Shown in pieces: positions 5,401-32,426 of a DNA stretch of 64,000 bases; the stretch's first letter is position 1, and each line of letters opens with the position of its first letter. The stretch covers positions 896,001 through 960,000 of the forward strand of contig CAWFAK010000007.1 of the NCBI GenBank assembly GCA_963813715.1. Direction: 5' to 3'. This stretch comes from an uncultured Planctomycetaceae bacterium (GTDB lineage Bacteria > Planctomycetota > Planctomycetia > Planctomycetales > Planctomycetaceae). The position numbers and the translations under genes were made by a program. The notes under the pieces were generated by a model. That model worked only from the letters and a program-made list of their open reading frames with translations. It was not told where the DNA came from and made no database searches.

Positions 5401-6339
5401 GTTCAGGACCTGCGTCAGCGGCACGCCGATTTCATCGATCAGGTCATTGATCACCAGGTTTCGAAAGGTCATCGGCAGCAGTTCTTCGCTCAAGTGCGGC
5501 TTCATCGTGAGCGTGATTTCGGCTCCATACCGCTGTTGCGTCCGTCTGCCCGGCAGAACGGAGACGGGGATGCGAATCAGATTCAGCGAGTAGCCCGGCG
5601 AATCAGCCGTGTCGTCGCCATCGCTCATGCGGCGCAGCTCGTGCAGGTGATCGATATAGCGCTTCATTTGGTCCAGATAGACGGTCGGCTCGAGACTGAT
5701 CCCATTCGAGGCGCCGGCGAACGCGAGCGGCGTCGGCATTGACACCCCCGTGCGCGACATGTTGCTGAACGCCCCAAATGCGGTCGTTGAGGGGTCGTAC
5801 GAGAAAGGAGACGACGGGGCCGCCCCGCTCGTGGAGGTCGACCCGCTGGGCGAGCTGCTCGCGCCCGATCCGCCGCTCGAGCTTGCTGAAGAGCTGGCCG
5901 TGGCGGGCGTCAGCCCTGAACCGCTTGAGCCCAGCGACGCGGCTTGGGCCGCGTAAGAGAGCGCGAGCGCATCGGCGGCATAGGCCTGATCGCTGCGGTT
6001 CAAAGACCCCTGCAGCGTAAACTGAAACTTGTTCAACATGGCGGCCATGGTGGTCTCGAATTCCTGACGGTACATCGTCAGGCGCGCCTGTCCCCACACG
6101 GACGGCTGCTCCGCCACCACGCTTCCGTCCGATTCGATGCCCCGCTCGAGCGAATCCAAGGCGGTGGCGAGATCGCCGGCGGTGGGCTGGTTAAGCGCCT
6201 GAGCCGGCGCTCCGTCTTCGTCAGAGATCAATTCAATCGAGTCCAGCGATCCGATCCGCTGACACGACGAGGTCAGCAGGGCCCCGCCGAAAATGATCGA
6301 CGTCCCGAGCGCAATCCAGCGCTGTCTGCGCACATTCAT
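2446..6339 (-). CDS. Large hypothetical lipoprotein-like protein (~1300 aa)
   Basis: Long ORF; signal with LLTSSC lipobox-like site, Ser-rich linker, beta-rich C-terminal part. Confidence 0.75.
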   Translation of the reverse strand: MNVRRQRWIALGTSIIFGGALLTSSCQRIGSLDSIELISDEDGAPAQALNQPTAGDLATALDSLERGIESDGSVVAEQPSVWGQARLTMYRQEFETTMAAMLNKFQFTLQGSLNRSDQAYAADALALSYAAQAASLGSSGSGLTPATASSSASSSGGSGASSSPSGSTSTSGAAPSSPFSYDPSTTAFGAFSNMSRTGVSMPTPLAFAGASNGISLEPTVYLDQMKRYIDHLHELRRMSDGDDTADSPGYSLNLIRIPVSVLPGRRTQQRYGAEITLTMKPHLSEELLPMTFRNLVINDLIDEIGVPLTQVLNDMDWRIPMKEKWRQLSRSGRASNGKSQYELLVETLERAIRAAQPTEMGSDERTNEQSRYGTDDSTPSTRLKSETARVVNLALAVHSTSRVRNARQAFPPSQILDVYGAHAWAQIVCTAWRTFVAEVENKSFIHYPDVQNFLQTELNASYELMKLDPETQDLWRECEEQLVKEIHGRNRENICAARKRFEEQAKAKSQNKSPELTTTLAWTIVVDSALLNQQLIEDMKTAPVSAGCHVALPQPAPGFWPKYFLPFPSPEDRQAFTEYVRCRWPIHVFALDPEDDSQNIADSYSMRREMQLAISLAFVSGNLSANNMFQFARRLETDMETIALNKTMVGFSHGTDTFGWRFYPRFQSPDTENNFKVLFELLWGGPDRRHLLRQRQLEPGMRECVAIVLMPSFVPYVDVDASSNFFALDNPRRKLMNSRKAIRLGEQLRMIQNCSQFVGHAECCREGDIDRLLARSQQLESRLPLQSMSVQVPYENTLGGFAMFNTGVTDFAPELWGWYGTPAINLDAPTTLFLIGNHFSVHQTRVVIGGQEIVQPELLSRQVMKVTIPQNAIALIEKTGEVAGGWAQQLDPSEPKNAIDALAETKSPCPQDPADAKQSAAGKVSLEETVSDGPSGLVMLTSDASGSSTSGTGALNSIETLSSQSIYPPQHLVFPKNAIKLHDPAEHDPTLPPCTLWLKAANGIITLGGNLHGLSFVSGTNGSSSMTITGRLADLQDAVDDLSYAPSASFAGVDALTLKLQGSGVNSSCTVSVAIHVGYKWPDYLYVDVQLATPYGSTTHLLVPAAHLTASGSGPAGASSGGSSPAPAGNDVSIASAKSTAVSQPAWTTAQFTLGCVSKGVGIAACTPPSYTPNALTINLGTNYQTPPDNTVNLTFSLGSPANGKLPLQAVTLTTGTAGSPGVNWDPNSHVLTIAGQDLVNMTTNLMNVIQYQFGASRPSSPPLSSFTMSTTVTDFNNPNGFGLANNLTVNLLPVSQ

Positions 6340-7550: not shown

Positions 7551-9294
7551 ATGACCAAGGTGACCAAAGTCGCCGTTTATTCAAACTGTGATATGGCGAC
7601 GGTTGCGTGGGTGACGAACGCCGCGATTCCTCAGTGCCGCGGCTTTGCACTCGAGCGGGAGGTTGCTCCGGGTAAGAAGGGAGACGCTGCCAGCGGTTTC
7701 ATCAATACTTGGGTCGGCTTCAAGGGCCAGAAACACCAGGCCGGCGAAAGCCGTGCGAGCACGGTTTGGCCGATTCAGCGTTACATCTGGTCCGATTACG
7801 TCGTCAGCCTGGGTCAAAAAGTACGCTATCGCGTGATCCCAATGCTTGGTTCCGCCAACAACCTTAAGCAGGCACCTCCGGATCAATGTAGCGCCTGGTC
7901 GCCCTGGATCACAATTGATACCGGAAGCACCAAGGGCTTCTCGGCCTACTTCAACCGGGGGCTGATCCCCTCACAGTTCATGGCGAGGCAAGCCAAGAAG
8001 TCGCAGTCGTTCAAAAAGATGTTGCAGCAGGATATCAACGACCCCAAAAGCACAATCCGCACGTTTCTCTCTGGAACGCTGCGAACTAAGCTGCTCGGGC
8101 TGCTGAAGGCGGCCGGCGGATCGGGCCTCAAGATCTACGCAGCTCTCTACGAATTAAATGACCCCGAATTGCTGCGGGCCCTGAAGGCGATCGGCGCCAA
8201 CTGCAATCTTCTGCTGGGATCGGGAGCGTACAAGTCGGCAAGCAAGAAGAAGCACACTCCCGCGGTGCCCGACGAAAACAAACTGGCGCGGCGCGACCTG
8301 AAGCAACATTCGAAAGTTCACGTCTATGACCGGCTCGTCAAGAGCCCGCACTTCGCGCACAACAAGTTCGTCGTGTTTTGCGACAAATCCGGGAAGCCCA
8401 AGAGAGTCTGGACCGGGAGCACGAACTGGACGGTCACCGGTCTGTGCACCCAGACTAACAACGGCATTTTGATCGATGACCCGAAGCTTGCGGCTGCCTA
8501 TCTCGCCCGGTGGACCGAGCTCAAGAAGGCCGGCAGTGGCTACCCGAAGACTCTCGCGCAGCATGGCTCGAAGCCTGCGATGTCAAAGCTCAATCAGTCC
8601 CCGCTGCACGCCTGGAACGTGCCCAGCTTGAAGTACGTCGATCTCAACGACGCGTCAAAATACATCCGGCAAGCCAAGCAAGGCGTTTTATATCTCATGT
8701 TTAATCCCGGCATCGGAGACGGCAAGAAGAAGGCCTATGCCCTGATTCAGAAACATCCTTAACCTCAATCCCAACAAACTGCTCATCCACGGCGTGCTTA
8801 ACCAGGACCCGGGAGGAAAAAACAAGCCCCTAATCCAGTTGGATCACAAAGGCACACAACTGCCGAGATTCTCGCTTCCGGCGATTTTGCCCAAGCCGCT
8901 CAAGGTGGCGAGCTTGAATTGGTTCAAAAGCACATTCCAATACAACATGGTGATGATCCACAGCAAGGTGGTGGTCATTGACCCCTTTGGCGACAAGCCC
9001 GTCGTTATGACGGGTTCGCATAACATGGGTCCCAAGGCCAGTCGGTCCAACGACGACAACCTGGTTATCATCGAAAATGCCCCGGGGCTGGCGGCCGAGT
9101 ATGCGGTCTACATCATGAACGTTTACGGCCACTACAAGTGGTTATTTAACCAATTTCTCCGAACGAAAAACGCCCCTCAGCGTGGCAAGAGTGCCTCACC
9201 GCAATACGACGGGAATGAAGACGACGACAAGTGGCAGAATCGTTATCTGGATCCGAAAAGCGCAAATTCGCGCGAAATTCAATTCTGGCTGTGA
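7551..9294 (+). CDS. Phospholipase D superfamily protein (frameshift ~8750)
   Basis: HNKFVV...WTGSTN and HSKVVVID...TGSHN HKD motifs in two consecutive ORFs. Confidence 0.85.
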
Positions 9295-9411
9295 CGACCG
9301 TCGGTGCGCCAAATCCGATGACGATGAAATCGCTGATCGCCGCTGCGTGCCCGTGATGATCCCTCACATAAAAAAACGGCAATTCCGGCCCGCACGGCGA
9401 AGTTGCTCTGC

Positions 9412-10855
9412 TCACACCCAAATATCCGAAGTGCAATCCCCACCCGGGAAGCGGATCTCGTGCGCGCGCACCGGCGCCCGTTGGTTCCTTGCCGAAGTCG
9501 ACGAGGAAGTTTTCGTTGACGGTCAGGCTGCCGTCGGGGTTGCAGTCGAATTGCATCAGGTAGGAACCCTTGGTGGCGAAGTCGGGGTAGAACTGGTTGT
9601 CCCAGGTGCTGTAGAGCGAGTTGGTCATGTAGAGCCGCTTGCCGTCGAGGCTCAGGTTGAGCATTTGCGGGCCGCCGTTGAGGTCGCGGCCTTTGACCGA
9701 GCGTTTCTTGCCGAGGACGCCGCCGAGCCAGACTTGGGCCGTCAGCTTGGGATGGGCCGGGTCGCTGACGTCGTAGCGGCGGATGTCGCCGTGCAGCCAG
9801 TTGGAGAAGTAGAGCCAGCGGTCGTCGAGTGAGAGGACGAGGTCGGTGATCAAGCCGGGGACAGGGAACGGCCAGCCCTTCTGTTCGACCGGATCGACCT
9901 GGATCACTTTGTCGGCCTTCCAGGTGTTGCCGTCCTGGTGCCAGTGCCAGATCGCGCTGCTGAGTGCGGCGCCGACGAAGCCGTGCTTGCTCGACGGTTC
10001 GTGATGGAAGCGGACTTCGAGCGGAATCAGCCCCGCCTCGCCGAGGTCGATCGTTTGCAGGATCTGCCGCTTCTCCCAGTCCCAGAAATTGAGATGGCGG
10101 CCGTATTTGCCCGCCGCCACGTCGGGCGGTTTGAAGCCGTCTTTGATCGTGTTGGGAGCGCCCCATTCGCTGCTGACCATCACGTTGTGGCGCGGCTGAT
10201 ACCAGAAGTCGTAATTAAAGGTGATGCCGCTCTTGGCAGGGTCCCAGCGGCCGGCGACGTTGAACTTGTCGTCGAGCAGCAGGAACCCGCCGGGCAGGTC
10301 GCCCTTCGCGTCGCCGAGCATGGAGATCATGATCTCGCCGGTCGGCAGGCAATGCACCGTGTGCGGACCGGTGAGGTTCGTCTTCGAGATGATTTCTTCC
10401 GGGCCGATGACCTTGTGCATCTTCGGCCGCCGCGGGTCGGCGACGTCGATGATGTGGATGCGGGTCGACTTCAGGCCGGGCACGACCAGGAACCGCCGCA
10501 TGTGCTTCGCGTCGCCGTGGCAACTGCTGCACGCGTTCCAGCCGAAGTGATGCAGCTCGTCGCCCAGCTCGGGCATCGGCACGCGCTCGATCACCTGCGA
10601 ATAAGTTGACGAAGCCGGATCGACGTCGACGATCGCCAGGAAGTCGGGCTTCTTGACCGACGTTGCGGCATACGTCGCCGTGACGAAGGCGATCTTTTCC
10701 CGCTCGCTCTGCATGGCCTCGCGCGGCGATGCGTAGGTGGAGTGACCGGAGCCCCCTTCCCCGTGATGGTGGGCGGCCAGACCGCGACTCCCCAAAGCAG
10801 ACGAGGCGGCCGCCGCGGCCGCCGTAGCGAGAAATTCACGTCGACGCATGGTCAT
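9412..10855 (-). CDS. Selenium-binding protein SBP56 / methanethiol oxidase family, Tat signal (frameshift near 3' end)
   Basis: GDELHHFGWNACSSC, GPHTVHC, YDFWYQPRHN, GGPQM..LSLDGKRLY..NSLYSTWD; shifted frame ends GGDCTSDIWV*. Confidence 0.9.
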
Positions 10856-11072
10856 TCCCCTGATTGATGATGCAAAGTCTCGCGAGGCTCGTTCGTTGGC
10901 CAGTACGCGGCATTGTACGACGCCCTGCTCACGCGGCAACCTGGCAGCCACGGCTTGTCAGATGCCCGACCTTGCGGGGTCCGTCCTTGGGAGAAATACC
11001 CGTAGTTCGCGCCCCCCGCTCGGGTTAGACTCAAAGCGGGCCACCTTCGTGCTTCTGGACCACTGATGATCC

Positions 11073-17118: not shown

Positions 17119-18228
17119 TCACAGCAGGTTTACGATGCGATCCGTCAGGCCCTTCTCGCCGACAACGACATTCAGCTTGCCGCTGCCGGCGATCTTTTCC
17201 AGAACTTCCAGCTCACGCAGCCGCATGAGCGTCGGGTTGTCCGCCAGCAGCTTGGCCGTGTTGGCCTGGCTGCGGATGGCGGCCGTCTCTTCGCGGCGGG
17301 CGATGAGGTTGGCCTCGGCGGCCTTCTTGGCCTCCGTCACCTTGTTCATCAGGTCCTTCATGTCGCCCGGCAGGATCACATCCCGGATGCCCACCGACGC
17401 GATTTCCAGACCCAACTCGCCCGCCCGACGGCGCACGCTCTCCTCGACGTCCCGCGCCACGGCGTCCTTGTCCGTGAGGAAGTTGTCGAGCTCGCGCGCA
17501 CCGATCACGCTCCGCAGCACCAGCTGCGTCTCGCGATAGAGCGCCTGACGCACGTCGTCCGTCTGGCTGACGGCCTGCCGTGCGTCGACGACCTTGTAGG
17601 TCACCACGGCATTCAGCCGCAGCGTGACCTTGTCGGCCGTCATGATCTCCTGACCGCCGACGTCGACCATCGTCTCGCGCAGGTCGACCTCGACCACGAG
17701 GGCCTCGGCCGGACCCTTCCAGAAGGCGTACTCGCCCGGCGCCAGCGTCTCGACATAGCGGCCGTCGACGAAGAGCACGCCCGCGCAGTCGCGCTTCACC
17801 GTGCACACGTCCAGGTACCGCTGCGCCCTCGCCGAGCGGACGATCGCCTTGAACTGGTCGTGCTCGAAGCGAACGTGCCGCGCGTCGAGCACCTCGACGT
17901 CGACCCGCTTCTGGCCCTTCCAGTACGCGTACTGGCCGCCGGCCAGCACGTGGGCGAAGCGACCCTCGATCCACACGAGAGCCCGCTCGTAGTCCTTGAG
18001 GTCGAGCACCACGGCGCGGTCGCCGAGCGCACCCGACTTCACGATCAGGTCGAGCTTCTCGTGCGAGAGCCACGTCGCCCGCCGCGACACGACGTCGACC
18101 GCCACCTTGCGGAGCGGGTCGATGAACCAGTGCGTACCCTGCTCGAGCACGCGGCGGAACTCGCCGTCGCGGAAGTAGAGACCCATCTCGTAGCTGCGGA
18201 TCTTGTAACGCTTGAAGACGAACATCAT
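17119..18228 (-). CDS. Slipin-family SPFH/band-7 protein with three N-terminal repeats
   Basis: VDLRE..GQEIMTADKVTLRLN, GIRDVILPG, RREETAA.RS.ANTAK..NPTLMRLRELE; AGGAGG SD before ATG. Confidence 0.9.
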   Translation of the reverse strand: MMFVFKRYKIRSYEMGLYFRDGEFRRVLEQGTHWFIDPLRKVAVDVVSRRATWLSHEKLDLIVKSGALGDRAVVLDLKDYERALVWIEGRFAHVLAGGQYAYWKGQKRVDVEVLDARHVRFEHDQFKAIVRSARAQRYLDVCTVKRDCAGVLFVDGRYVETLAPGEYAFWKGPAEALVVEVDLRETMVDVGGQEIMTADKVTLRLNAVVTYKVVDARQAVSQTDDVRQALYRETQLVLRSVIGARELDNFLTDKDAVARDVEESVRRRAGELGLEIASVGIRDVILPGDMKDLMNKVTEAKKAAEANLIARREETAAIRSQANTAKLLADNPTLMRLRELEVLEKIAGSGKLNVVVGEKGLTDRIVNLL

Positions 18229-18239
18229 CCACCTCCTTC

Positions 18240-18715
18240 CCGGAGGATTTCTGAACGAGCTAACCAAGTCAGCTCGCTGAACTTCAGCTGCGAGCGCGCT
18301 CTGCGTAAGGTTCAAGACCACTGACGAAACGAACAGGAGAATAAAGACGCCGTCAGAGGGAAAAACGTTCGCCGATCACACGCAAAAACGCGGAAGGCGT
18401 TTGAGCCGCGGGCTCGCTGGGCGTCGACGCGTCTCGAGAATCGCCTTCGTTCGACGGCGTGCCGTCGAACCCTCAGCGATTCCGTCCCCGCGCCGTTGCC
18501 GAACGAGCGTCACGGCGGAATCCGCGCCCTACAGGGCGTGTTTACGTGTTGCCCAGACACGCCCGGACCCGTTGCCGAAGCACCGCTTTCGCGATCCTCG
18601 GCGGTTTCCGGCACGTGACTGAAGCCGATCGAACGAGCGTTTTCCCTCCTCGGGCGTTGCGGCGCGGTCTTGCGACCGCGTCGTCTCGGTTTCGAGCTCG
18701 GTTAACAGCCGAGTG
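18240..18715 (-). ncRNA. Candidate large structured ncRNA upstream of slipin
   Basis: No credible ORF; at least 8 hairpins incl. GCAA, GAAA and UUCG tetraloops on the minus strand. Confidence 0.65.
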
Positions 18716-18717
18716 CT

Positions 18718-18794
18718 TGGTGCTTGGTGCGGGAGTCGAACCCGCGACAGCCAGACCTTAAATCTGGTGCTCTTCCGACTGAGCTAACCGAAGT
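18718..18794 (-). tRNA. tRNA-like RNA, anticodon TAA, encoded CCA, imperfect acceptor
   Basis: ACTTCGGT-TAGCTCAGTCGGAAGAGC-CCAGA-TTTAAGG-TCTGG...GGGTTCGACTCCC-ACCAAGC-ACCA. Confidence 0.7.
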
Positions 18795-18901
18795 TGGTGA
18801 CGGCCGTTTTAGAACCCATGTCCGGAACACACGAACCTGATCCACGAGACCGCGTGCCAGTCTCGGGAGGCCCTTGCGCCGCTGGACGGGCCGACACCAC
18901 C
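18795..18901 (-). ncRNA. Candidate ~107-nt RNA closed by an acceptor-like stem
   Basis: 5' GGTGGTG pairs with 3' CGTCACC-A; GCCCGTCC/GGACATGGGT and CGAGAC/GTCTCG stems. Confidence 0.45.
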
Positions 18902-18918
18902 GAAGCAAGCCTGAAAAG

Positions 18919-18990
18919 AAACGCCGGTGGGAGTCGAACCCACTACAAGCCGCTTTGCAGGCGGCCGCCCTACCGTCTGGCTCCGGCGTT
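18919..18990 (-). tRNA. tRNA-Cys(GCA)
   Basis: GCCGC-CTGCAAA-GCGGC; TTCGACT loop; U73. Confidence 0.85.
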
Positions 18991-19015
18991 AGATGCGTTT
19001 CAAAGATCTCAAAAA

Positions 19016-19087
19016 TGTCCTCGCCAGGATTCGGACCTGGTCCTCGACCTTCGCAGAGTCGCGTGCGATCCACCACACTCCGAGGAC
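19016..19087 (-). tRNA. tRNA-Arg(GCG), T-loop TCCGAAT
   Basis: CGACT-CTGCGAA-GGTCG; acceptor GTCCTCG/CGAGGAC. Confidence 0.8.
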
Positions 19088-19108
19088 GTTGCGCACTTGT
19101 CGTGCGAG

Positions 19109-19179
19109 TACCCCGCCGAGGATTCGAACCTCGTCTGGCAGCTTCGAACACTGCCGTGCGTCCACCACACTCGCAGGGC
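19109..19179 (-). tRNA. tRNA-Arg(TCG)
   Basis: GCAGT-GTTCGAA-GCTGC; acceptor GCCCTGC/GCGGGGT. Confidence 0.8.
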
Positions 19180-19259
19180 AATTCGTAGAACTCGCATTGA
19201 AGAAAACGAAGCACCCGACGGCTCACGCCGTCGGCTCGCCGGGTCTCCTCGCGCTTTCA

Positions 19260-19331
19260 TGTCTCGACCTGGATTCGAACCAGGACCAGGACCTTCGGAG
19301 GGTCCGATGCGATCCGTTACACCATCGAGAC
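19260..19331 (-). tRNA. tRNA-Arg(CCG)
   Basis: GGACC-CTCCGAA-GGTCC. Confidence 0.9.
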
Positions 19332-19362
19332 GCTGTCGCCAAAATCTTCCAAAAGAACGCAG

Positions 19363-19436
19363 AGCCGACGGCTGGATTCGCACCAGCATCATCCTGTTTA
19401 CAAGACAGGCGCCTTTCTGTTTCGAGCCACGTCGGC
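19363..19436 (-). tRNA. tRNA-Thr(TGT), T-loop TGCGAAT
   Basis: CCTGT-CTTGTAA-ACAGG; acceptor GCCGACG/CGTCGGC. Confidence 0.8.
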
Positions 19437-19455
19437 ACTCAAACGATCGATCAAG

Positions 19456-19525
19456 CACGAACGCGAGGATTTGAACCCCGTCGGGCGGTTTTGGAGGCCG
19501 CCGGCTCTCCCAGGAGCACGCTCGT
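19456..19525 (-). tRNA. tRNA-Trp(CCA)
   Basis: GCGGC-CTCCAAA-ACCGC; TTCAAAT loop. Confidence 0.75.
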
Positions 19526-19550
19526 GTAAAGCCACGACCGGCGCGGACGG

Positions 19551-19634
19551 TTCCGGGAGGGCGAAGCTCCTGCTGAGCCAGCATTCTTCTGCAAGCAAAG
19601 CAGAGGTCGGCGGGAGCCTCGCCCTCCAGGAACA
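19551..19634. repeat. Inverted REP-like pair
   Basis: GGAGGGCGAAGCTCCTGCTGAGCC ... GTCGGCGGGAGCCTCGCCCTCC. Confidence 0.7.
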
Positions 19635-19635
19635 A

Positions 19636-20232
19636 TCAACTCTCCAGCGGGACGTTCCAATACGCCTCGCTGATGAACTTCGACCAGCTCATCATCCGCT
19701 CGCTCGTCCGTGCGTAGAGCGGCTTCCAGGCCGGTCGCACCGGCTCCCGATGCAGCTTCATCCGTGCCTGCGCCGGCGTGCGGTCGGCCTTGTGCTTGTT
19801 GCAGTCGATGCACGCCAGCACGCAGTTCTCCCACGTCGAGACGCCCCCTTGCGAACGCGGCACAACGTGGTCGATCGTCAGCTCGGCTCCGCCCGGCTGA
19901 CGGCCGCAGTACTGGCACGTCCAATGATCGCGCTTGTGGATGTTCCGCCGGCTGAAGGCGACCGCGGCCGTCGGCAGCCGGTTGTACTCCGCCAGCACGA
20001 TCACCTCCGGCACGCGCAGCGTCGACCGCACGCACTGGATGAAGTCGTCACCGTCGGCCGGCCGCAGCCGCGACCAGTCGGCCCACGTGTAGAGCCGAAA
20101 ATCGCGCGGATCGACGACGCGGGCCGCCTCGTTCCACAACAGCACCAGCGCCCGGGCGACCGTCGCCACGTTCACGGGCTGCCAGTTGCGATTGAGGACC
20201 AGCGCCGGCCGCTGGAGCGTTCGCGTCGTCAT
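19636..20232 (-). CDS. HNH endonuclease
   Basis: LVLNRNWQP, FSRRNI..RD..CQYCG..LTIDHVVPRSQGG.STWEN.VLAC..CN..K. Confidence 0.95.
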   Translation of the reverse strand: MTTRTLQRPALVLNRNWQPVNVATVARALVLLWNEAARVVDPRDFRLYTWADWSRLRPADGDDFIQCVRSTLRVPEVIVLAEYNRLPTAAVAFSRRNIHKRDHWTCQYCGRQPGGAELTIDHVVPRSQGGVSTWENCVLACIDCNKHKADRTPAQARMKLHREPVRPAWKPLYARTSERMMSWSKFISEAYWNVPLES

Positions 20233-20256
20233 GATTTTGTTCCTCCGCGAAAACAG

Positions 20257-20330
20257 GGTGCCCAGGGGGAGTTGAACCCACCCCTTCGACGTTCACAGCG
20301 TCGCGTGCAAACCGTTACACCACGGGCACC
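20257..20330 (-). tRNA. tRNA-His(GTG)
   Basis: CGACG-CTGTGAA-CGTCG; G-1:C73. Confidence 0.9.
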
Positions 20331-20419
20331 ATCCAATGGACCGTCCAAGGGACGGCTGGTGCCTCCGGCAGGGAAGTGCCCGCTGTCCTTCTGTCACACT
20401 TGTTGTTTGATAGGCAATT

Positions 20420-20491
20420 TGCCTCGACCAGGATTTGAACCCAGAACTCCTTGTTAGAAGCAAGGAATGATTTCCGTTTCACCATCGAGGC
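20420..20491 (-). tRNA. tRNA-Arg(TCT)
   Basis: CCTTG-CTTCTAA-CAAGG. Confidence 0.9.
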
Positions 20492-20507
20492 CCGTGGCTC
20501 GATCGAG

Positions 20508-20594
20508 CGGAAGGCAAGGGAATTGAACCCTCATCCGCACTCGGCGGAACCGCCTTAGCAGAGCGGCCCGGCCAACCGTATCCGGCTACCTTCC
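20508..20594 (-). tRNA. tRNA-Ser(GCT)
   Basis: CCGCT-CTGCTAA-GGCGG; long variable arm; G73. Confidence 0.85.
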
Positions 20595-20663
20595 GTATTT
20601 TTGTCCTTCTTGTTTCTGTACTGCCTTATTTCTGTACCTGCGGGCACCGTCCGAGGCTTCGAA

Positions 20664-20734
20664 TGGACCGCCGGGGAATCGAACCCCGATTTCCTGGTTG
20701 CAAGCCAGGCGTCTTCCCGTTTGACGAGCAGCCC
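20664..20734 (-). tRNA. tRNA-Ala(TGC)
   Basis: CCTGG-CTTGCAA-CCAGG; G3:U70. Confidence 0.9.
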
Positions 20735-20741
20735 GGGTTGG

Positions 20742-20851
20742 AGAGTCCAAAGTCCAAGGTCCAACGTCCAAAGTCGGAAAGACAAAAAGACCGCGGCCGC
20801 CGTCGTCTCTTGTTTTCTGACCTTGCTTTGGACTTTGGACTTCTGGACCTT
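20742..20851. repeat. Heptamer tandem repeats (AAAGTCC-like), direct block plus inverted block
   Basis: agagtcc aaagtcc aaggtcc aacgtcc ... tttggac tttggac ttctggac. Confidence 0.8.
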
Positions 20852-20866
20852 CGCCATTAGGCGAAT

Positions 20867-20942
20867 TGACCGAGGTGGGAGTCGAACCCACAAAGTCACG
20901 GCGCTCTCGACACCGCCGCTTTGCCGGTTTGCGTACTCGGCC
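20867..20942 (-). tRNA. tRNA-Leu(GAG), short variable arm, C33
   Basis: CGGTG-TCGAGAG-CGCCG; Leu-type D loop; A73. Confidence 0.75.
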
Positions 20943-20972
20943 GTTTTTGCACTATCTCCTTCGTTCGATCAG

Positions 20973-21041
20973 TAGCAGGTCCGGGTGTCGCACCCGGCCG
21001 GTGGAGCTTATGAGGCCCCACTGGGCACTGGCCCCCCTGCG
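20973..21041 (-). tRNA. tRNA-Met(CAT)-like, C1 mismatch, reduced D arm
   Basis: GGGGC-CTCATAA-GCTCC; T arm CCGGG-TGCGACA-CCCGG. Confidence 0.65.
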
Positions 21042-21089
21042 TCATCGCGTCAAATAACGCTGCGTGATTCGACGATTCGTTGTTTGAAG

Positions 21090-21172
21090 TGACCAAGGGG
21101 AGAGTCGAACTCCCACGCCCGCGGGGCACGACATTCTGAGTGTCGCGTGTCTGCCAGTTCCACCACTTGGTC
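21090..21172 (-). tRNA. tRNA-Leu(CAG)
   Basis: CGACA-CTCAGAA-TGTCG; long variable arm. Confidence 0.9.
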
Positions 21173-21237
21173 GTTGTCGCATGTTCTCGGCGAGCGTGGT
21201 CGGTTCGTCGATTCGGTTCTGATTGCCTCGATGAAAG

Positions 21238-21310
21238 CGACCCGTGCGGGAGTCGAACCCGCCTTTGCGGCTTGAGGGGCCGCCGTCCTATGCCAATAGA
21301 CGAACGGGCC
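21238..21310 (-). tRNA. tRNA-Glu(CTC), C33
   Basis: GCGGC-CCCTCAA-GCCGC. Confidence 0.85.
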
Positions 21311-21340
21311 GAATTGTTCGTCGCATTTCCAATTGACGAG

Positions 21341-21422
21341 TGCGTCGGGCAGGAGTCGAACCTGCAATGCCATCAGGCGGGTGGTTTACAGTCACTGGGG
21401 CACGCCAATGCCCAGCCGACGC
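21341..21422 (-). tRNA. tRNA-Tyr(GTA)
   Basis: AGTGA-CTGTAAA-CCACC (imperfect stem); variable arm. Confidence 0.8.
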
Positions 21423-21440
21423 GTATTTGTTCTCTCGAAG

Positions 21441-21515
21441 TGGCACGAGTGGGAGTCGAACCCACAGACCACGAAGGTTTGAGCTTCGCCGCTTTGCCAG
21501 TTTGCGTACCGTGCC
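21441..21515 (-). tRNA. tRNA-Leu(CAA), short variable arm
   Basis: CGAAG-CTCAAAC-CTTCG. Confidence 0.8.
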
Positions 21516-21534
21516 CTCTCGCGATTTCTCGAAG

Positions 21535-21609
21535 CGTCTCCGATGGGATTCGAACCCACGATCTCCACCGTGACAGGGTGGCGGGGACGGCCAACTCCCC
21601 TACGAAGAC
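21535..21609 (-). tRNA. tRNA-Asp(GTC)
   Basis: CCACC-CTGTCAC-GGTGG; G73. Confidence 0.9.
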
Positions 21610-21687
21610 CGGCGTTGCCGGCTTGTGCCTCCGGCAGGCAGACGAAGGACCGCAGGGTTATGCTTGCGGTTCGCCTCAATTCTTCAG

Positions 21688-21759
21688 TAATCCCGGATGG
21701 ACTCGAACCATCGTTGCCTGGGTGTAGGCCAGGAGTCGTTGCCGCTGGACCACGGGATC
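21688..21759 (-). tRNA. tRNA-Val(TAC), C33
   Basis: CCTGG-CCTACAC-CCAGG. Confidence 0.85.
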
Positions 21760-21833
21760 TTTTTGTTCTGAACGCGTTGTGCGAATTGGACGGCTCCCGA
21801 TGGTCGCCTTTCTTCGTGTAGTGCGATTAGCAG

Positions 21834-21919
21834 CGGAAGCCGTGGGACTCGAACCCACAATTCGCGCACGGCGAACACCTGTTTTCGGGACAGGCCCCTC
21901 ATCCGGCCGGATGACTTCC
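21834..21919 (-). tRNA. tRNA-Ser(CGA), C33
   Basis: CCTGT-CCCGAAA-ACAGG; long variable arm. Confidence 0.8.
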
Positions 21920-21945
21920 GTGAGATACGAACTTAGCTTTTCCAG

Positions 21946-22021
21946 TTGCGGGGGCTGGAATCGAACCAGCGGCCTCCAGGTTCAGAGCCTGGCGTCACGT
22001 ACCAGCAGCAACTGCCCCGCA
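21946..22021 (-). tRNA. tRNA-Gln(CTG)
   Basis: CCAGG-CTCTGAA-CCTGG; U1:A72. Confidence 0.85.
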
Positions 22022-22066
22022 GCGTGTTTTGCCCTCTTATTAACGAGCGTCCGTCGGTGAAAACTG

Positions 22067-22137
22067 TTCGGGGAGAAGGATTCGAACCTTCATCACCTGC
22101 TTCAAAGGCAGGCAGCCTACCGTTAGCCGATCCCCGA
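22067..22137 (-). tRNA. tRNA-Gln(TTG)
   Basis: CCTGC-CTTTGAA-GCAGG; U1:A72. Confidence 0.85.
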
Positions 22138-22166
22138 GCACGCGCGCTTTCAAATTCCATCCACAA

Positions 22167-22238
22167 AGTGCCCTGCGGGAGTTGAACCCGCCTCGCCGGC
22201 TTGGAAGGCCGGCACCTTTGCCGCTCGGCCAAGGGCAC
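22167..22238 (-). tRNA. tRNA-Gly(TCC)
   Basis: CCGGC-CTTCCAA-GCCGG; U73. Confidence 0.85.
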
Positions 22239-22258
22239 AGTCGTTTCAATTTCTCAGG

Positions 22259-22345
22259 CGGAAGCCGTGGGACTCGAACCCACAAGCGAGTGGTTGCTCG
22301 CCTCCTGTTTTCAAGACAGGACCCTCATCCGGCCGGATGGCTTCC
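22259..22345 (-). tRNA. tRNA-Ser(TGA)
   Basis: CCTGT-CTTGAAA-ACAGG; long variable arm. Confidence 0.85.
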
Positions 22346-22372
22346 GTGAGACAACAAATTTTCGACAGACAG

Positions 22373-22447
22373 CTGCGGCGGCAGGAATCGAACCTGCGTC
22401 GGGATGATTAACAGTCACCTGCCCGTACCAACACGGGCCCCACCGCA
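22373..22447 (-). tRNA. tRNA-Asn(GTT)
   Basis: GGTGA-CTGTTAA-TCATC; U1:A72, G73. Confidence 0.85.
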
Positions 22448-22509
22448 ATGCGACTTCTTCTTCCTCCGGAGAACCGGCGGGCTAACACCCGCGCGCTCGC
22501 CTGCGAAAG

Positions 22510-22580
22510 AGCACCCAGCGGGAGTCGAACCCGCACTTCCGCCCTGGCAAGGCAGCAGGCTGCCGCTACATCATGGGTGC
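22510..22580 (-). tRNA. tRNA-Gly(GCC)
   Basis: CTGCC-TTGCCAG-GGCGG; U73. Confidence 0.85.
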
Positions 22581-22712
22581 GTTTTTTTGTCCTGGTCGAG
22601 TTGTCAAAGAACCATGCACACGGAACGGTCGTCCGCGCAAATTCAAACGCGACGGCCGAAGGGCCGTGCCGAATAACCACGGCGGCCAAAGGGGCCGCGA
22701 AAACTAACGCAG

Positions 22713-22784
22713 AGCACAGGGTGGGACTCGAACCCACGTTTCCGCATTACGGGTGCGGAGTCCTCGCCGCTGAACGACCCGTGC
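22713..22784 (-). tRNA. tRNA-Thr(CGT), C33
   Basis: CCGCA-CCCGTAA-TGCGG. Confidence 0.85.
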
Positions 22785-22831
22785 TTGCCGTTGTCGAACT
22801 GTCGCCGTCAAACTCGTCGTCATCTCATCAG

Positions 22832-22904
22832 TGGGACCAGAGGGACTTGAACCCTCACCGACCTGGTTAAGAGCCAGGCATGCTGCCGCTAACACCTTGA
22901 TCCC
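22832..22904 (-). tRNA. tRNA-Lys(CTT)
   Basis: CCTGG-CTCTTAA-CCAGG. Confidence 0.9.
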
Positions 22905-22920
22905 GTGTGCGTTTCCGAAG

Positions 22921-22992
22921 TGGGGCCGGAGGGATTTGAACCCACGCCTCGCAGATTAAAAGTCTGCTGTGCTACCGTTACACCACGACCCC
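22921..22992 (-). tRNA. tRNA-Lys(TTT)
   Basis: GCAGA-CTTTTAA-TCTGC. Confidence 0.9.
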
Positions 22993-23066
22993 GCGTGTGG
23001 CCGTGGCTCTGTTTCTTCCGGTACCGTCGGGTCACTTTTTTATCTCCGAAAAAAAGCCCAAAAGAG

Positions 23067-23137
23067 TCGCTCGGGGTGGAGTCGAACCACCGTTTTCGCC
23101 TTATCAGAGCGACGTACTTCCGTTGCACTACCGAGCG
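23067..23137 (-). tRNA. tRNA-Ile(GAT)
   Basis: TCGCT-CTGATAA-GGCGA. Confidence 0.85.
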
Positions 23138-23159
23138 TGCTGCTCCTGCATTTCTTCAG

Positions 23160-23231
23160 TCGGGATGGCTGGAATCGAACCAGCTTCCACGTGTTCCCGA
23201 AACACGCGGGCGCCCGGAGCCCTTCATCCCG
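23160..23231 (-). tRNA. tRNA-Pro(CGG)
   Basis: CGTGT-TTCGGGA-ACACG; C1:G72, A73. Confidence 0.85.
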
Positions 23232-23251
23232 TTCTTGTTTGTCTTCTCGAA

Positions 23252-23323
23252 TGACTCGTGCGGGATTTGAACCCGCGTCGCCGCCTTGAAAGGGCAGAAT
23301 CCTCACCGTTAGACGAACGAGCC
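23252..23323 (-). tRNA. tRNA-Glu(TTC)
   Basis: CTGCC-CTTTCAA-GGCGG. Confidence 0.9.
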
Positions 23324-23359
23324 TTTTCTTCGTGCATCAGCGCGCAAGCTGAGCGCAAG

Positions 23360-23431
23360 TGGGTCGGGAGGCGCTCGAATCCTCGTCCCCTGGTTTTCAG
23401 CCAGGCGCTAAACCGTCTCAGCTACCGACCC
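23360..23431 (-). tRNA. tRNA-Phe(GAA), first gene of the array
   Basis: CCTGG-CTGAAAA-CCAGG; T stem has an A/G mismatch. Confidence 0.85.
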
Positions 23432-30963: not shown

Positions 30964-32426
30964 TCAGCCCTTGATGACGCCGATCGGGCGCAGGCGAGCG
31001 ACCTTTTTGGCCAGTCCCGCGCGGTGCACGACCTCCACGACGAGGTCGACGTCCTTGTAGGCGTCGGGCTGTTCCTCGGCCAGGCCCTGCCACGAGCGGG
31101 CCTGCGCGATCACGCCGCGCTGCCGCAGCTCCTGGTCGATTCTCCGCCCCTTCGACTGCTTGACGGCTGCTGTGCGACTCATCAGCCGCCCCGCGCCGTG
31201 GCACGCGCTGCCGAAGGTTTGCTCCATGCTGCCGGGCTGACCCAACAGCACCCAGCTGGCCCGACCCATGTCGCCGGGAATCAGCACGGGCTGACCGACC
31301 TCGTGATAATCGGCGGGCAGCTCGGCGTGATGAGGCGGATAGGCGCGTGTCGCCCCCTTGCGGTGGACCCACACGCGCTTGGCCGTGCCGTCGACGTCGT
31401 GCTCCTCGAACTTGGCGATGTTGTGGGCCACGTCGTAAACCAGCTCGAGCCCCAGCTCGTCCCACGTCCGCCCGAAGATCCGCTCGAAGACTTCCCGCGC
31501 CTGCCACATGAGCAGTTGGCGGTTGCCCCAGGCGAAGTTTGCGGCCGCCCGCATCGCGCCGAGATAGTGCTGCCCCTCGTGGCTGTGCACTGGCGCAGGC
31601 CAACTGTCGGTCGGGCAGCTCGATGCCGTATTTTTCGGGCACTCCCCGCAAAGCGCGCAGGCGCGTCGTCGCAGACCTGGTAACCGAGGCCTCGCGAGCC
31701 GGAATGAATCATCACGCAGACCATCTTCTCGGCCAGGCCAAGCGTGGCGAGCGCCTCCGCATCAAACACGCGGTCGACCACCTGCACCTCCAGGAAGTGG
31801 TTGCCCGAGCCGAGCGTGCCGCACTGGTCGTACCCCCGATCGAGGGCGCGGTCGCTGACGAAATCGGGGCGGGCGCCTTCCAGACAGCCGCGGCCCTCCG
31901 TGAATTCGAGATCGCGCTCGGTCGCCAGCCCGCGTTCTTGCAGGAACTGCGGTCCCAGCTCGAGCAAGCGCCGCAGCTCGTGGTGGTCGAACTTGTACTT
32001 GCCCCCGTGGCCGGCCCCCGTCGGTACACAGCGAAAGAGTTCGCGGACGAGCGTCTCGATTGCCGGCCGAACGTCGGTCTCGCTCAGATTGCTCCGCATG
32101 AGCCGCACGCCGCAATTGATGTCGTAGCCGACGCCGCCGGGCGAGATCACGCCCCCTTCTTCCGGGTCGGTCGCGCAGACGCCGCCGATGCAGAATCCGT
32201 AGCCCCAATGGATGTCGGGCATCGCCAGGCTGGCTCGCTGAATTCCCGGCAGAAACGCGACGTTGGCCACCTGCTCCGCGGCGTCGTCCCGGCGGATCAA
32301 CTCCATGAGCGCATTGTCGGCGTAGATCAAGCCGTCGACGCGCATGCCCCGCTTGTAGGATTTCGGGATCCGCCACAAGCACTCGTTCACGCGCTCGAGC
32401 GGTCCGGCAAATTGTTTCGAGGGCAT
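30964..32426 (-). CDS. rtcB: RtcB RNA ligase (frameshifts ~31590-31660)
   Basis: MPDIHWGYGF, GYDINCGV, GTLGSGNHFLE, HSGSRG, DVAHNIAK, VHRKGATRA, SACHGAGR, EEQPDAYK. Confidence 0.95.

Follow-up and report, generated by a model that had tools for sequence, protein, structure and literature searches.

SPFH proteins, to which the slipins belong, are known as membrane scaffolds. In some bacteria a Band-7 protein of this kind is encoded beside the RNA ligase RtcB, together with a predicted 'band 7-associated tRNA' (10.1101/312249, citing Burroughs & Aravind 2016). The available part of that source describes the b7a-tRNA as strongly tRNA-like, as interchangeable with Ro60/YrlA beside RtcB and as experimentally unvalidated (10.1101/312249). 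The window analyzed here is a stretch of 64,000 nucleotides from an uncultured Planctomycetaceae bacterium (assembly GCA_963813715.1, contig CAWFAK010000007.1, positions 896,001 to 960,000). A preliminary description, made without database searches, had pointed to a minus-strand region of this window, located upstream of a slipin gene, as a candidate non-coding RNA with pronounced structure. In the best-supported reading of the present analysis this is one composite non-coding RNA of about 550 nt, predicted to run from about 18899 to 18344 on the minus strand. As in the b7a-tRNA/Band-7 module, a cloverleaf lies directly upstream of the Band-7 gene on the same strand, the slipin is of the same subfamily as the slipins of rtc operons (34-38% identity), and a model built from the planctomycete RNA matches one Bacillota RNA upstream of slipin-rtcB-rlaP. 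In contrast to that module, the tRNA-like part accounts for about 75 of about 550 conserved bases and is not a tRNA-sized molecule, RtcB and RtcR are unlinked to the planctomycete module, and the latter is often joined to the end of a spare tRNA array.

The Y RNAs of rtc operons are excised from the operon transcript. The YrlA/Y RNAs that accompany Ro60 (Rsr) (PMC4201824; RF02553) resemble the slipin-side RNA in having a tRNA-like module and a long stem formed from distant segments, and in being encoded next to a presumed protein partner in a context of RNA repair. However, no match to the Rfam families YrlA, Y RNA or Deinococcus Y RNA was found in the window, and the slipin-side RNA is about four to five times longer. 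Its full cloverleaf precedes the rod instead of lying inside it, and its partner is an SPFH protein in a genome where no TROVE/Ro60 gene was found. A second related system is the long tRNA array of Anabaena, where the array, an HNH gene, rtcB and the slipin alr0740 share the TrcR translational-stress regulon (PMC8421152, PMC10272220). According to the available text of these papers, the array, the HNH gene all8564, rtcB and alr0740 are all de-repressed in the trcR mutant. The window likewise has about 30 tRNA genes in a spare array, which also includes an HNH gene. In Anabaena, however, slipin is not adjacent to the array, and the sections of PMC8421152 and PMC10272220 available to us mention neither a tRNA-like element nor a structured RNA at slipin. 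The large, ornate RNAs of bacteria and phages that often lie beside tRNA genes (GOLLD and ROOL), and also OLE, HEARO and raiA, are similar in size class, elaborate covarying fold and tRNA gene neighbours; the slipin RNA differs from them by its strict protein-gene partner and its chromosomal, class-wide range in Planctomycetia. No description of a large RNA at slipin, or of large domains flanking the tRNA-like element, was found in the literature searched, which did not include Burroughs & Aravind 2016.

Extent and fold of the RNA

The interval between the 32nd tRNA call of ARAGORN (at 18718) and the slipin ATG at 18228 is free of genes. Its minus strand (18233-18720) folded with a minimum free energy of -238.2 kcal/mol (z = -4.86), and none of 100 shuffled sequences folded as well. 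Within the genus, blastn matched the marked region in eight of the eleven other genomes; two genomes of greater distance were matched as well, and each match was placed between a tRNA run and a slipin gene. Among these relatives the conservation spanned from about 18660 to about 18344, where it stopped abruptly. About 105 nt located 5' of the adjacent tRNA look-alike were found to be conserved and structured as well, and the conserved unit was therefore set at about 18899 to 18344. The preliminary description had placed the limits at 18240 and 18715. These had to be moved at both ends, as conservation ends near 18344 and extends 5' through the 'tRNA-Leu' to about 18899; the adjacent 'tRNA' had been overlooked as a part of the element.

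From 5' to 3' the RNA consists of a structured 5' domain, the tRNA look-alike, two hairpins and a 317-nt rod with a U-rich tail. Conserved covarying structure flanks the cloverleaf over about 105 nt on its 5' side and about 375 nt on its 3' side. The 5' domain (18794-18899, minus strand) was delimited from a MAFFT alignment of 44 loci, RNAalifold and pair counts. Its outer stem is formed by UGGUGUCGGC with GCCGUCACCA and encloses a conserved CCAGCGGCGCA, a variable hairpin and a conserved GUGUUCCG-N3-4-AUGGGUUCUGAC. Changes on both sides of a pair were observed for all eight pairs of the outer stem and for four of the eight inner pairs. The look-alike follows at 18718-18793 (minus strand), and a linker at 18661-18717 (minus strand) carries the two small hairpins, CUCGG-loop-CCGAG and GCGGUC-GCAA-GACCGC. 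Judged by eye, both hairpins recur with altered stem letters in the 44-locus alignment; they were kept out of the formal pair counts because MAFFT misaligns the linker.

The rod, or core, covers 18344-18660 (minus strand) and was defined by a covariance model, R1. It is closed by the 16-pair helix P1 (18657-18640 with 18364-18347), followed by P2 (18632-18627 with 18377-18372). The left branch is short and has CGC-GAAA-GCG at its tip, and the long right arm (18549-18437 and its partners) leads to a terminal hairpin at 18470-18449. A U-rich tract lies 3' of the closing helix in many loci. A tandem duplication of the 3' end of the rod, GGCGTCTTTATC-TTCCGCATT, was observed just 3' of the rod in one locus (L014). 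Nine helices had been proposed before, and all of them exist as complementary strings at the positions given for them; only four match the consensus fold. These are CTCGG/CCGAG, GCGGTC-GCAA-GACCGC, CGC-GAAA-GCG and the arm formed by GAATCGC and GTTCGACGG-CCGTCGAAC. Four others, TGC-TTCG-GCA, GGGCGTGT/ACACGCCC, CGCCGT/ACGGCG and CTGACG/CGTCAG, are displaced by long-range pairings, the last of them taking one strand of P1. The ninth, CGAGCTGAC/GTTAGCTCG, falls within the non-conserved spacer.

This spacer separates the rod from slipin (18229-18343, minus strand). Among 67 loci it varied from 14 to 2152 nt (median 91) and was of unrelated sequence. At its end in the window, a hairpin of CCUCC (18246-18242) and GGAGG (18236-18232) would mask the ribosome-binding site; this hairpin is limited to the genus and some nearer relatives. 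In a few loci the spacer holds other genes, some of them on the opposite strand. A small '23S rRNA-intervening sequence protein' gene (PF05635) lies between RNA and slipin on the opposite strand in L039 (2579-2947, minus strand) and L047 (2585-2950, minus strand), and an ADP-ribosylglycohydrolase gene lies there on the same strand in L030.

Covariation and non-coding status

The fold of the RNA was found to be under selection. A structure-blind MAFFT alignment of 11 relatives, analyzed with RNAalifold, gave a nested fold with long-range closing helices and compensatory changes in 38 of 92 pairs. The covariance model R1 has 320 positions and 96 pairs, and its E-values are rough. It was scanned over 80 slipin loci from genome contigs, all labelled Planctomycetota except one bin labelled Actinomycetota. 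In the resulting alignment of 71 distinct sequences, 88.8% of the rod cells were paired, compared to 67.9% in shuffles, and 88 of the 96 pairs had changed on both sides. The covariation score of the rod was 0.492, compared to 0.184 for shuffles and 0.045-0.062 for slid partners. This alignment was fitted to R1 and is thus biased towards the structure; the structure-blind result and the pair counts of the 5' part agree with it in direction. For the 5' domain and the tRNA-like part, aligned by MAFFT, pairing was 93.5% versus 82.9%, and 26 of 39 pairs had changed on both sides. At the window locus R1 scored 322 bits on the sense strand and 30 bits on the antisense strand, and G-U pairs are frequent in the rod.

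No conserved reading frame was found. The lengths of the core modulo 3 were evenly distributed (26/26/19), stops occurred in all three sense frames in 50 of the 71 distinct homologues, and a protein-coding reading was rejected on these two grounds. The earlier proposal, a non-coding and structured minus-strand RNA located upstream of slipin, was borne out, and the RNA proved to be conserved, with covariation, 5' of slipin homologues. The proposal could not assign the RNA to GOLLD, HEARO or a riboswitch, and no such match was found in Rfam 15. At gathering scores, Rfam 15 matched only tRNAs in the whole window, and at E ≤ 10 a search of the 801 nt at 18100-18900 gave only tRNA and chance-level matches. 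GOLLD, ROOL, HEARO, OLE, raiA and any other known family of Rfam 15 were rejected for lack of a covariance-model match.

Association with slipin

The slipin gene (17119-18228, minus strand) encodes an SPFH/Band 7 protein of 369 amino acids (Pfam Band_7, E 1.1e-29). Residues 142-355 are stomatin-like (PDB stomatin, 4e-31), and the N-terminal 140 amino acids matched no family except for a weak Band_7 match (E 0.0015). PADLOC did not match the protein. An open reading frame at 17213-18232 was discarded as the gene, being in the wrong frame and having no Pfam match.

RNA and slipin were found to co-occur strictly, adjacent to each other and on the same strand, in the genomes searched. A sense-strand match to R1, full or cut by the contig end, was located 5' of slipin in 72 of the 80 loci, again in line with the preliminary description. 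Two of the other eight have less than 300 nt of upstream sequence, and six were without the RNA even with filters off. The association was also seen when the search was started from the RNA. Among 101 whole genomes of the class, R1 gave one match in each of 17 genomes, and all 16 matches outside the genome of the window have slipin downstream on the same strand, in 13 cases close by and in three at about 0.9-1.1 kb. A tRNA-like element was present 40-60 nt upstream in 16 of 16. A search of the same 101 genomes starting from slipin identified 34 carriers. Of the 17 carriers missed by the filtered R1 search, 16 had the RNA upstream when the filters were switched off, and in the last one slipin is at the start of the contig. 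The RNA was consequently present in 33 of 34 slipin-positive genomes and in none of the 67 slipin-negative genomes. No conserved gene was found downstream of slipin in loci of at least 6 kb, the best cluster comprising three loci.

Cultured carriers of the RNA are Planctomicrobium sp. SH664, Adhaeretor mobilis HG15A2, Lacipirellula limnantheis I41 and Aeoliella sp. SH292. Three 'viral' contigs of IMG/VR contain slipin, and the RNA is present in both of those with upstream sequence; no link to phages is drawn. In L047, tandem slipin paralogues each have their own 5' domain, tRNA-like element and rod (2244-2556 and 5480-5792). A contig of 2.5 kb in the Actinomycetota bin (L018) carries an RNA of planctomycete type and an 83%-identical slipin, and its label is probably a binning error.

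The tRNA-like domain

The look-alike at 18718-18793 was called as tRNA-Leu(UAA) by ARAGORN and as a tRNA by Rfam (50.9 bits), and it is probably of the 'band 7-associated tRNA' type. Its D-arm motif was detected 5' of the rod in 53 of 55 loci. Across 44 loci, 99-100% of the cells in the D, anticodon and T stems were paired. The acceptor stem has three or four conserved pairs, only three of which are supported across the 44 loci. The anticodon triplet varies freely, with 24 forms in 40 seven-base loops, among them A34 triplets, which are unusual in bacteria; loops of six or eight bases were found in 4 of 44. ARAGORN labels across the loci included Leu, Thr, Ile, Asn, His, Pro and others, or there was no call. 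A genuine decoding tRNA was rejected, because there is no seven-pair acceptor stem and the anticodon is not kept among orthologues. RNA contigs, described below, cross both borders of the look-alike.

In the seven-base loops, a pyrimidine at position 32 (40/40) and a purine at position 37 (38/40) are kept while the triplet takes its 24 forms. Such a pattern could be expected if the RNA were to work without slipin, as a sensor or decoy aimed at phage nucleases or at toxins that cut anticodons; an arms race would then account for the free triplet, and slipin would be no more than a neighbour under shared regulation. The frequent position of the module after a spare tRNA array with an HNH gene is in line with this explanation, and the available text of a Salmonella study suggests a decoy role for YrlA's tRNA-like domain (PMC7790460). 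However, U33 is present in only 27 of 40 loops and some loops have six or eight bases, so mimicry of the anticodon loop is loose. A decoy also leaves both the selection on the 317-nt rod and the 5' domain and the near-perfect co-occurrence with slipin unexplained, and we regard it as improbable.

Slipin loci in other phyla

The preliminary description had named three motifs as also preceding slipin genes in proteobacterial rtcB loci, which would imply conservation across phyla. The motifs had no exact match upstream of slipin in the three proteobacterial loci L092-L094, where all matches with up to two mismatches were either outside the region upstream of slipin or on the other strand. The idea of cross-phylum conservation fared better in part, through the tRNA-like elements and one Bacillota match described below. 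A tblastn search of plasmid and chromid records identified full-length slipins 34-38% identical to that of the window over 92-96% of its length. The matched slipins of Burkholderia, Citrobacter and Subdoligranulum (Bacillota) are located beside RtcR, RtcB and RlaP. The order is rtcR, a gap, slipin and rtcB in Burkholderia and slipin, rtcB, rlaP in Subdoligranulum, and in Citrobacter slipin comes after a divergent rtcR and before a nucleotidyltransferase gene.

One or two tRNA-like or T-arm-like elements were present 5' of slipin in all six non-planctomycete loci examined, in the proteobacterial loci after a sigma-54-like motif. The folded segment that comes next had z values of -6.1 and -5.7 in two Burkholderia loci, -3.7 in Subdoligranulum and -2.5 in Photobacterium, and the short remaining segment in two enteric loci gave -0.6 and -2.5. 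In the Subdoligranulum RNA, immediately 5' of slipin, R1 detected homology with 25.4 bits (E 1e-6 within 33 kb), and the matched positions are the junction sequences that Planctomycetia also conserve. None of the five proteobacterial loci was matched by R1, the best scores being 10.4 bits in L092-L094 and 13.7 bits, inside slipin, in L132-L133. Sequence-only nhmmer profiles from two alignments gave nothing below E 0.5 in the six cross-phylum loci. The slipin-rtcB operons of Burkholderia and Photobacterium (L094 5400-6000, L133 4220-4545, L132 4626-4940) were observed to have tRNA-like elements and a rod of about 170-250 nt, which folds strongly and lies 3' of the sigma-54-like promoter. Rfam gave only sub-threshold YrlA, mascRNA and tRNA-Sec matches to these three RNAs, and the slipin-rtcB RNA of Burkholderia and Photobacterium appears to be uncatalogued as well.

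Environmental RNA

The RNA was found to be present in environmental RNA of this organism or close strains. Six metatranscriptome runs contained part of the region, and four were mapped onto it. In the runs X17 and X18, from two different soil studies, contig depth over 18321-18905 was 22-45 and 79-325, compared to at most 7 over slipin and at most about 3 over the tRNA array; each contig has a single depth figure, which does not allow expression to be ranked. The contigs of the two studies cover 18352-18896 far deeper than the slipin gene. Contig ends in sequencing-adapter letters were observed at 18352, 18369 and 18896. This pattern fits, weakly, a discrete RNA from about 18899 to the foot of P1. 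tRNAs are captured poorly in these data, the uncovered parts of the window in X17 and X18 are no evidence of silence, and a further run, X3, had a flat depth across the region and may contain DNA. A promoter reading of GTGTTCCG..ATGGGTTCTGAC was set aside, since the motif is within covarying stems and within the RNA contigs.

The main rival explanation is a cis-acting leader, or attenuator, of the slipin mRNA. Transcription would be stopped by the rod, through P1 and the U-rich tail, or translation would be blocked by the CCUCC/GGAGG hairpin of this genus, until a signal such as damaged or uncharged tRNA, received with the aid of the tRNA-like domain, lets polymerase or ribosomes through. A leader would fit the constant position of the RNA, always directly upstream of slipin and on its strand. 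It would also fit the U-rich tract after the closing helix in many loci, the hairpin masking the ribosome-binding site in the nearer relatives, the ending of the RNA contigs before slipin, and the position of the analogous RNA of Proteobacteria and Bacillota between a sigma-54-type promoter and slipin-rtcB. On the other hand, no conserved antiterminator pairing, as in a riboswitch or T-box-type leader, was seen, no formal search for alternative folds having been made, and the sole candidate, CTGACG/CGTCAG, is missing from a 94%-identical relative. The masking hairpin is specific to a lineage, and a leader of 550 nt with a full cloverleaf is unprecedented among the cis-regulators of Rfam that were scanned. 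The spacer is unconserved, can be as long as 2.1 kb and in some loci includes an opposite-strand gene, and the rod is still of full length in such a case (L027, 168 bits). A discrete RNA is preferred to a simple leader because of this spacer, which ranges from 14 to 2152 nt, and because a U-rich tail follows the rod and the contigs are deep on the RNA and reach no more than 7 on slipin. The leader is considered unlikely, yet it deserves more weight than the other rivals; it is not exclusive of an action in trans, and the two readings are compatible.

tRNA array and neighbouring genes

ARAGORN made 32 minus-strand tRNA calls within 4.7 kb, from 23431 down to 18718, the look-alike included. The remaining 31 tRNA genes, also analyzed with Rfam, form an array at 18918-23431 (minus strand), and the last of them, tRNA-Cys(GCA) at 18918-18990, is directly 5' of the RNA. 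As 55 dispersed tRNA genes are located elsewhere in the genome, the array is a spare set. It is a long tRNA array (L-array) in the sense of at least 20 tRNA genes at a density of at least two per kb, additional to a dispersed set. An HNH endonuclease gene lies inside it (19636-20232, minus strand; Pfam HNH, 3.7e-15); HNH genes are frequent alongside long tRNA arrays, according to the available text of PMC8421152. In a contig of run X3, 105 nt at 19528-19634, from tRNA-Trp to the HNH gene, are replaced by 39 other letters, which looks like strain variation inside the array. A minus-strand element at 22257-22345 reached 47.1 bits as tRNA-Sec in Rfam, against a threshold of 47 bits, and was called tRNA-Ser(UGA) by ARAGORN; it probably represents a Ser tRNA with a long arm that belongs to the array.

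Among 63 loci with at least 700 nt of sequence 5' of the rod, tRNA-Cys(GCA) was present 150-400 nt upstream in 39. Further upstream tRNA genes numbered three or more in 36 loci and one only in 10, and were absent from 15. The array is therefore a frequent, non-obligatory companion of the RNA. The position directly after tRNA-Cys, at the end of the 31-tRNA array of the window, and the recurrence of tRNA-Cys in those 39 loci could suggest a processing or termination element that serves maturation of the array transcript rather than slipin. This is contradicted by the 15 loci without a further tRNA gene and the 10 with only one, by the roughly half of the 16 matches found from the RNA that have the tRNA-like element only and no array, and by the presence of slipin downstream of all 16. 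Such an element is given very little credence here.

An RtcB RNA ligase gene is located about 12.7 kb from the RNA (30967-32273, minus strand), and the interval is filled by unrelated genes. It was detected as two Pfam pieces (profile positions 222-426 and 1-211) that fall in different overlapping open reading frames, which suggests that the gene is split or frameshifted, or that the assembly is in error. A homologue of the 56-kDa selenium-binding protein (SBP56, E 2e-198) is encoded at 9146-10951 (minus strand).

Proposed function

It is somewhat probable that the RNA is a dedicated companion of the cytosolic SPFH protein slipin, acting in trans as a Y-RNA-like partner in a context of RNA repair and translation stress. 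The RNA may derive from the tRNA-array transcript, at its slipin-proximal end, or have a start of its own near 18899, and its 3' end would be produced by a stop or a cut at the foot of P1. By analogy with YrlA/Y RNA and Ro60 in RtcB repair operons, it could then act in trans as a partner or scaffold of the slipin oligomer. The tRNA-like domain might act as a mimic and draw in enzymes that handle or cut tRNAs, and the module together with the spare tRNA array may respond to translation stress or RNA damage, with the RNAs of the cell being protected or repaired. The analogy is drawn because slipin adjoins RtcB, RlaP and RtcR, with a tRNA-like RNA upstream, in Burkholderia and Subdoligranulum. 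We infer the ends of the RNA and the way they are made, its action in trans, the binding to slipin and the link to RNA repair.

Several observations weigh against such a companion role. Searches of Pfam and PDB recognized no RNA-binding domain in slipin, whose binding to the RNA is a prediction. In Planctomycetia the module and RtcB are unlinked, lying 0.18-5.3 Mb apart in all five complete genomes. Ro60/TROVE (PF05731) was not found in this 82.6%-complete genome, while control genomes were matched, and the parallel to Y RNAs is therefore only an analogy. Neither a sigma-70-type promoter nor a canonical hairpin terminator was found in a scan of 18100-19100. Six of 78 slipin loci with at least 1.2 kb of upstream sequence were without the RNA with filters off. 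Besides the limited meaning of contig depth mentioned above, the contigs possibly derive from related strains, and a prematurely terminated leader would give the same contig pattern.

A broader and more tentative proposal, possible rather than probable, is that the RNAs associated with slipin make up a class that spans phyla, in which large tRNA mimics act as the RNA subunit of an SPFH-cage ribonucleoprotein. They would represent a second solution, independent of Ro60-Y RNA, for dealing with damaged tRNAs, which in Planctomycetia would have grown to about 550 nt and become attached to reserve tRNA genes instead of RtcB.

For the predicted 'band 7-associated tRNA', the evidence from environmental RNA and the covariance model are new, as is the finding that, in one phylum, a far larger folded RNA contains it as just a single domain. 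The physical linkage ties spare tRNA arrays to slipin/RtcB stress genes, beyond the co-regulation seen in Anabaena. With environmental RNA, a larger fold, a model and named strains at hand, the role of bacterial tRNA-like RNAs in RNA repair and in responses to translational stress is therefore directly testable. A dedicated RNA partner, if true, would be a new role for the SPFH/slipin proteins.

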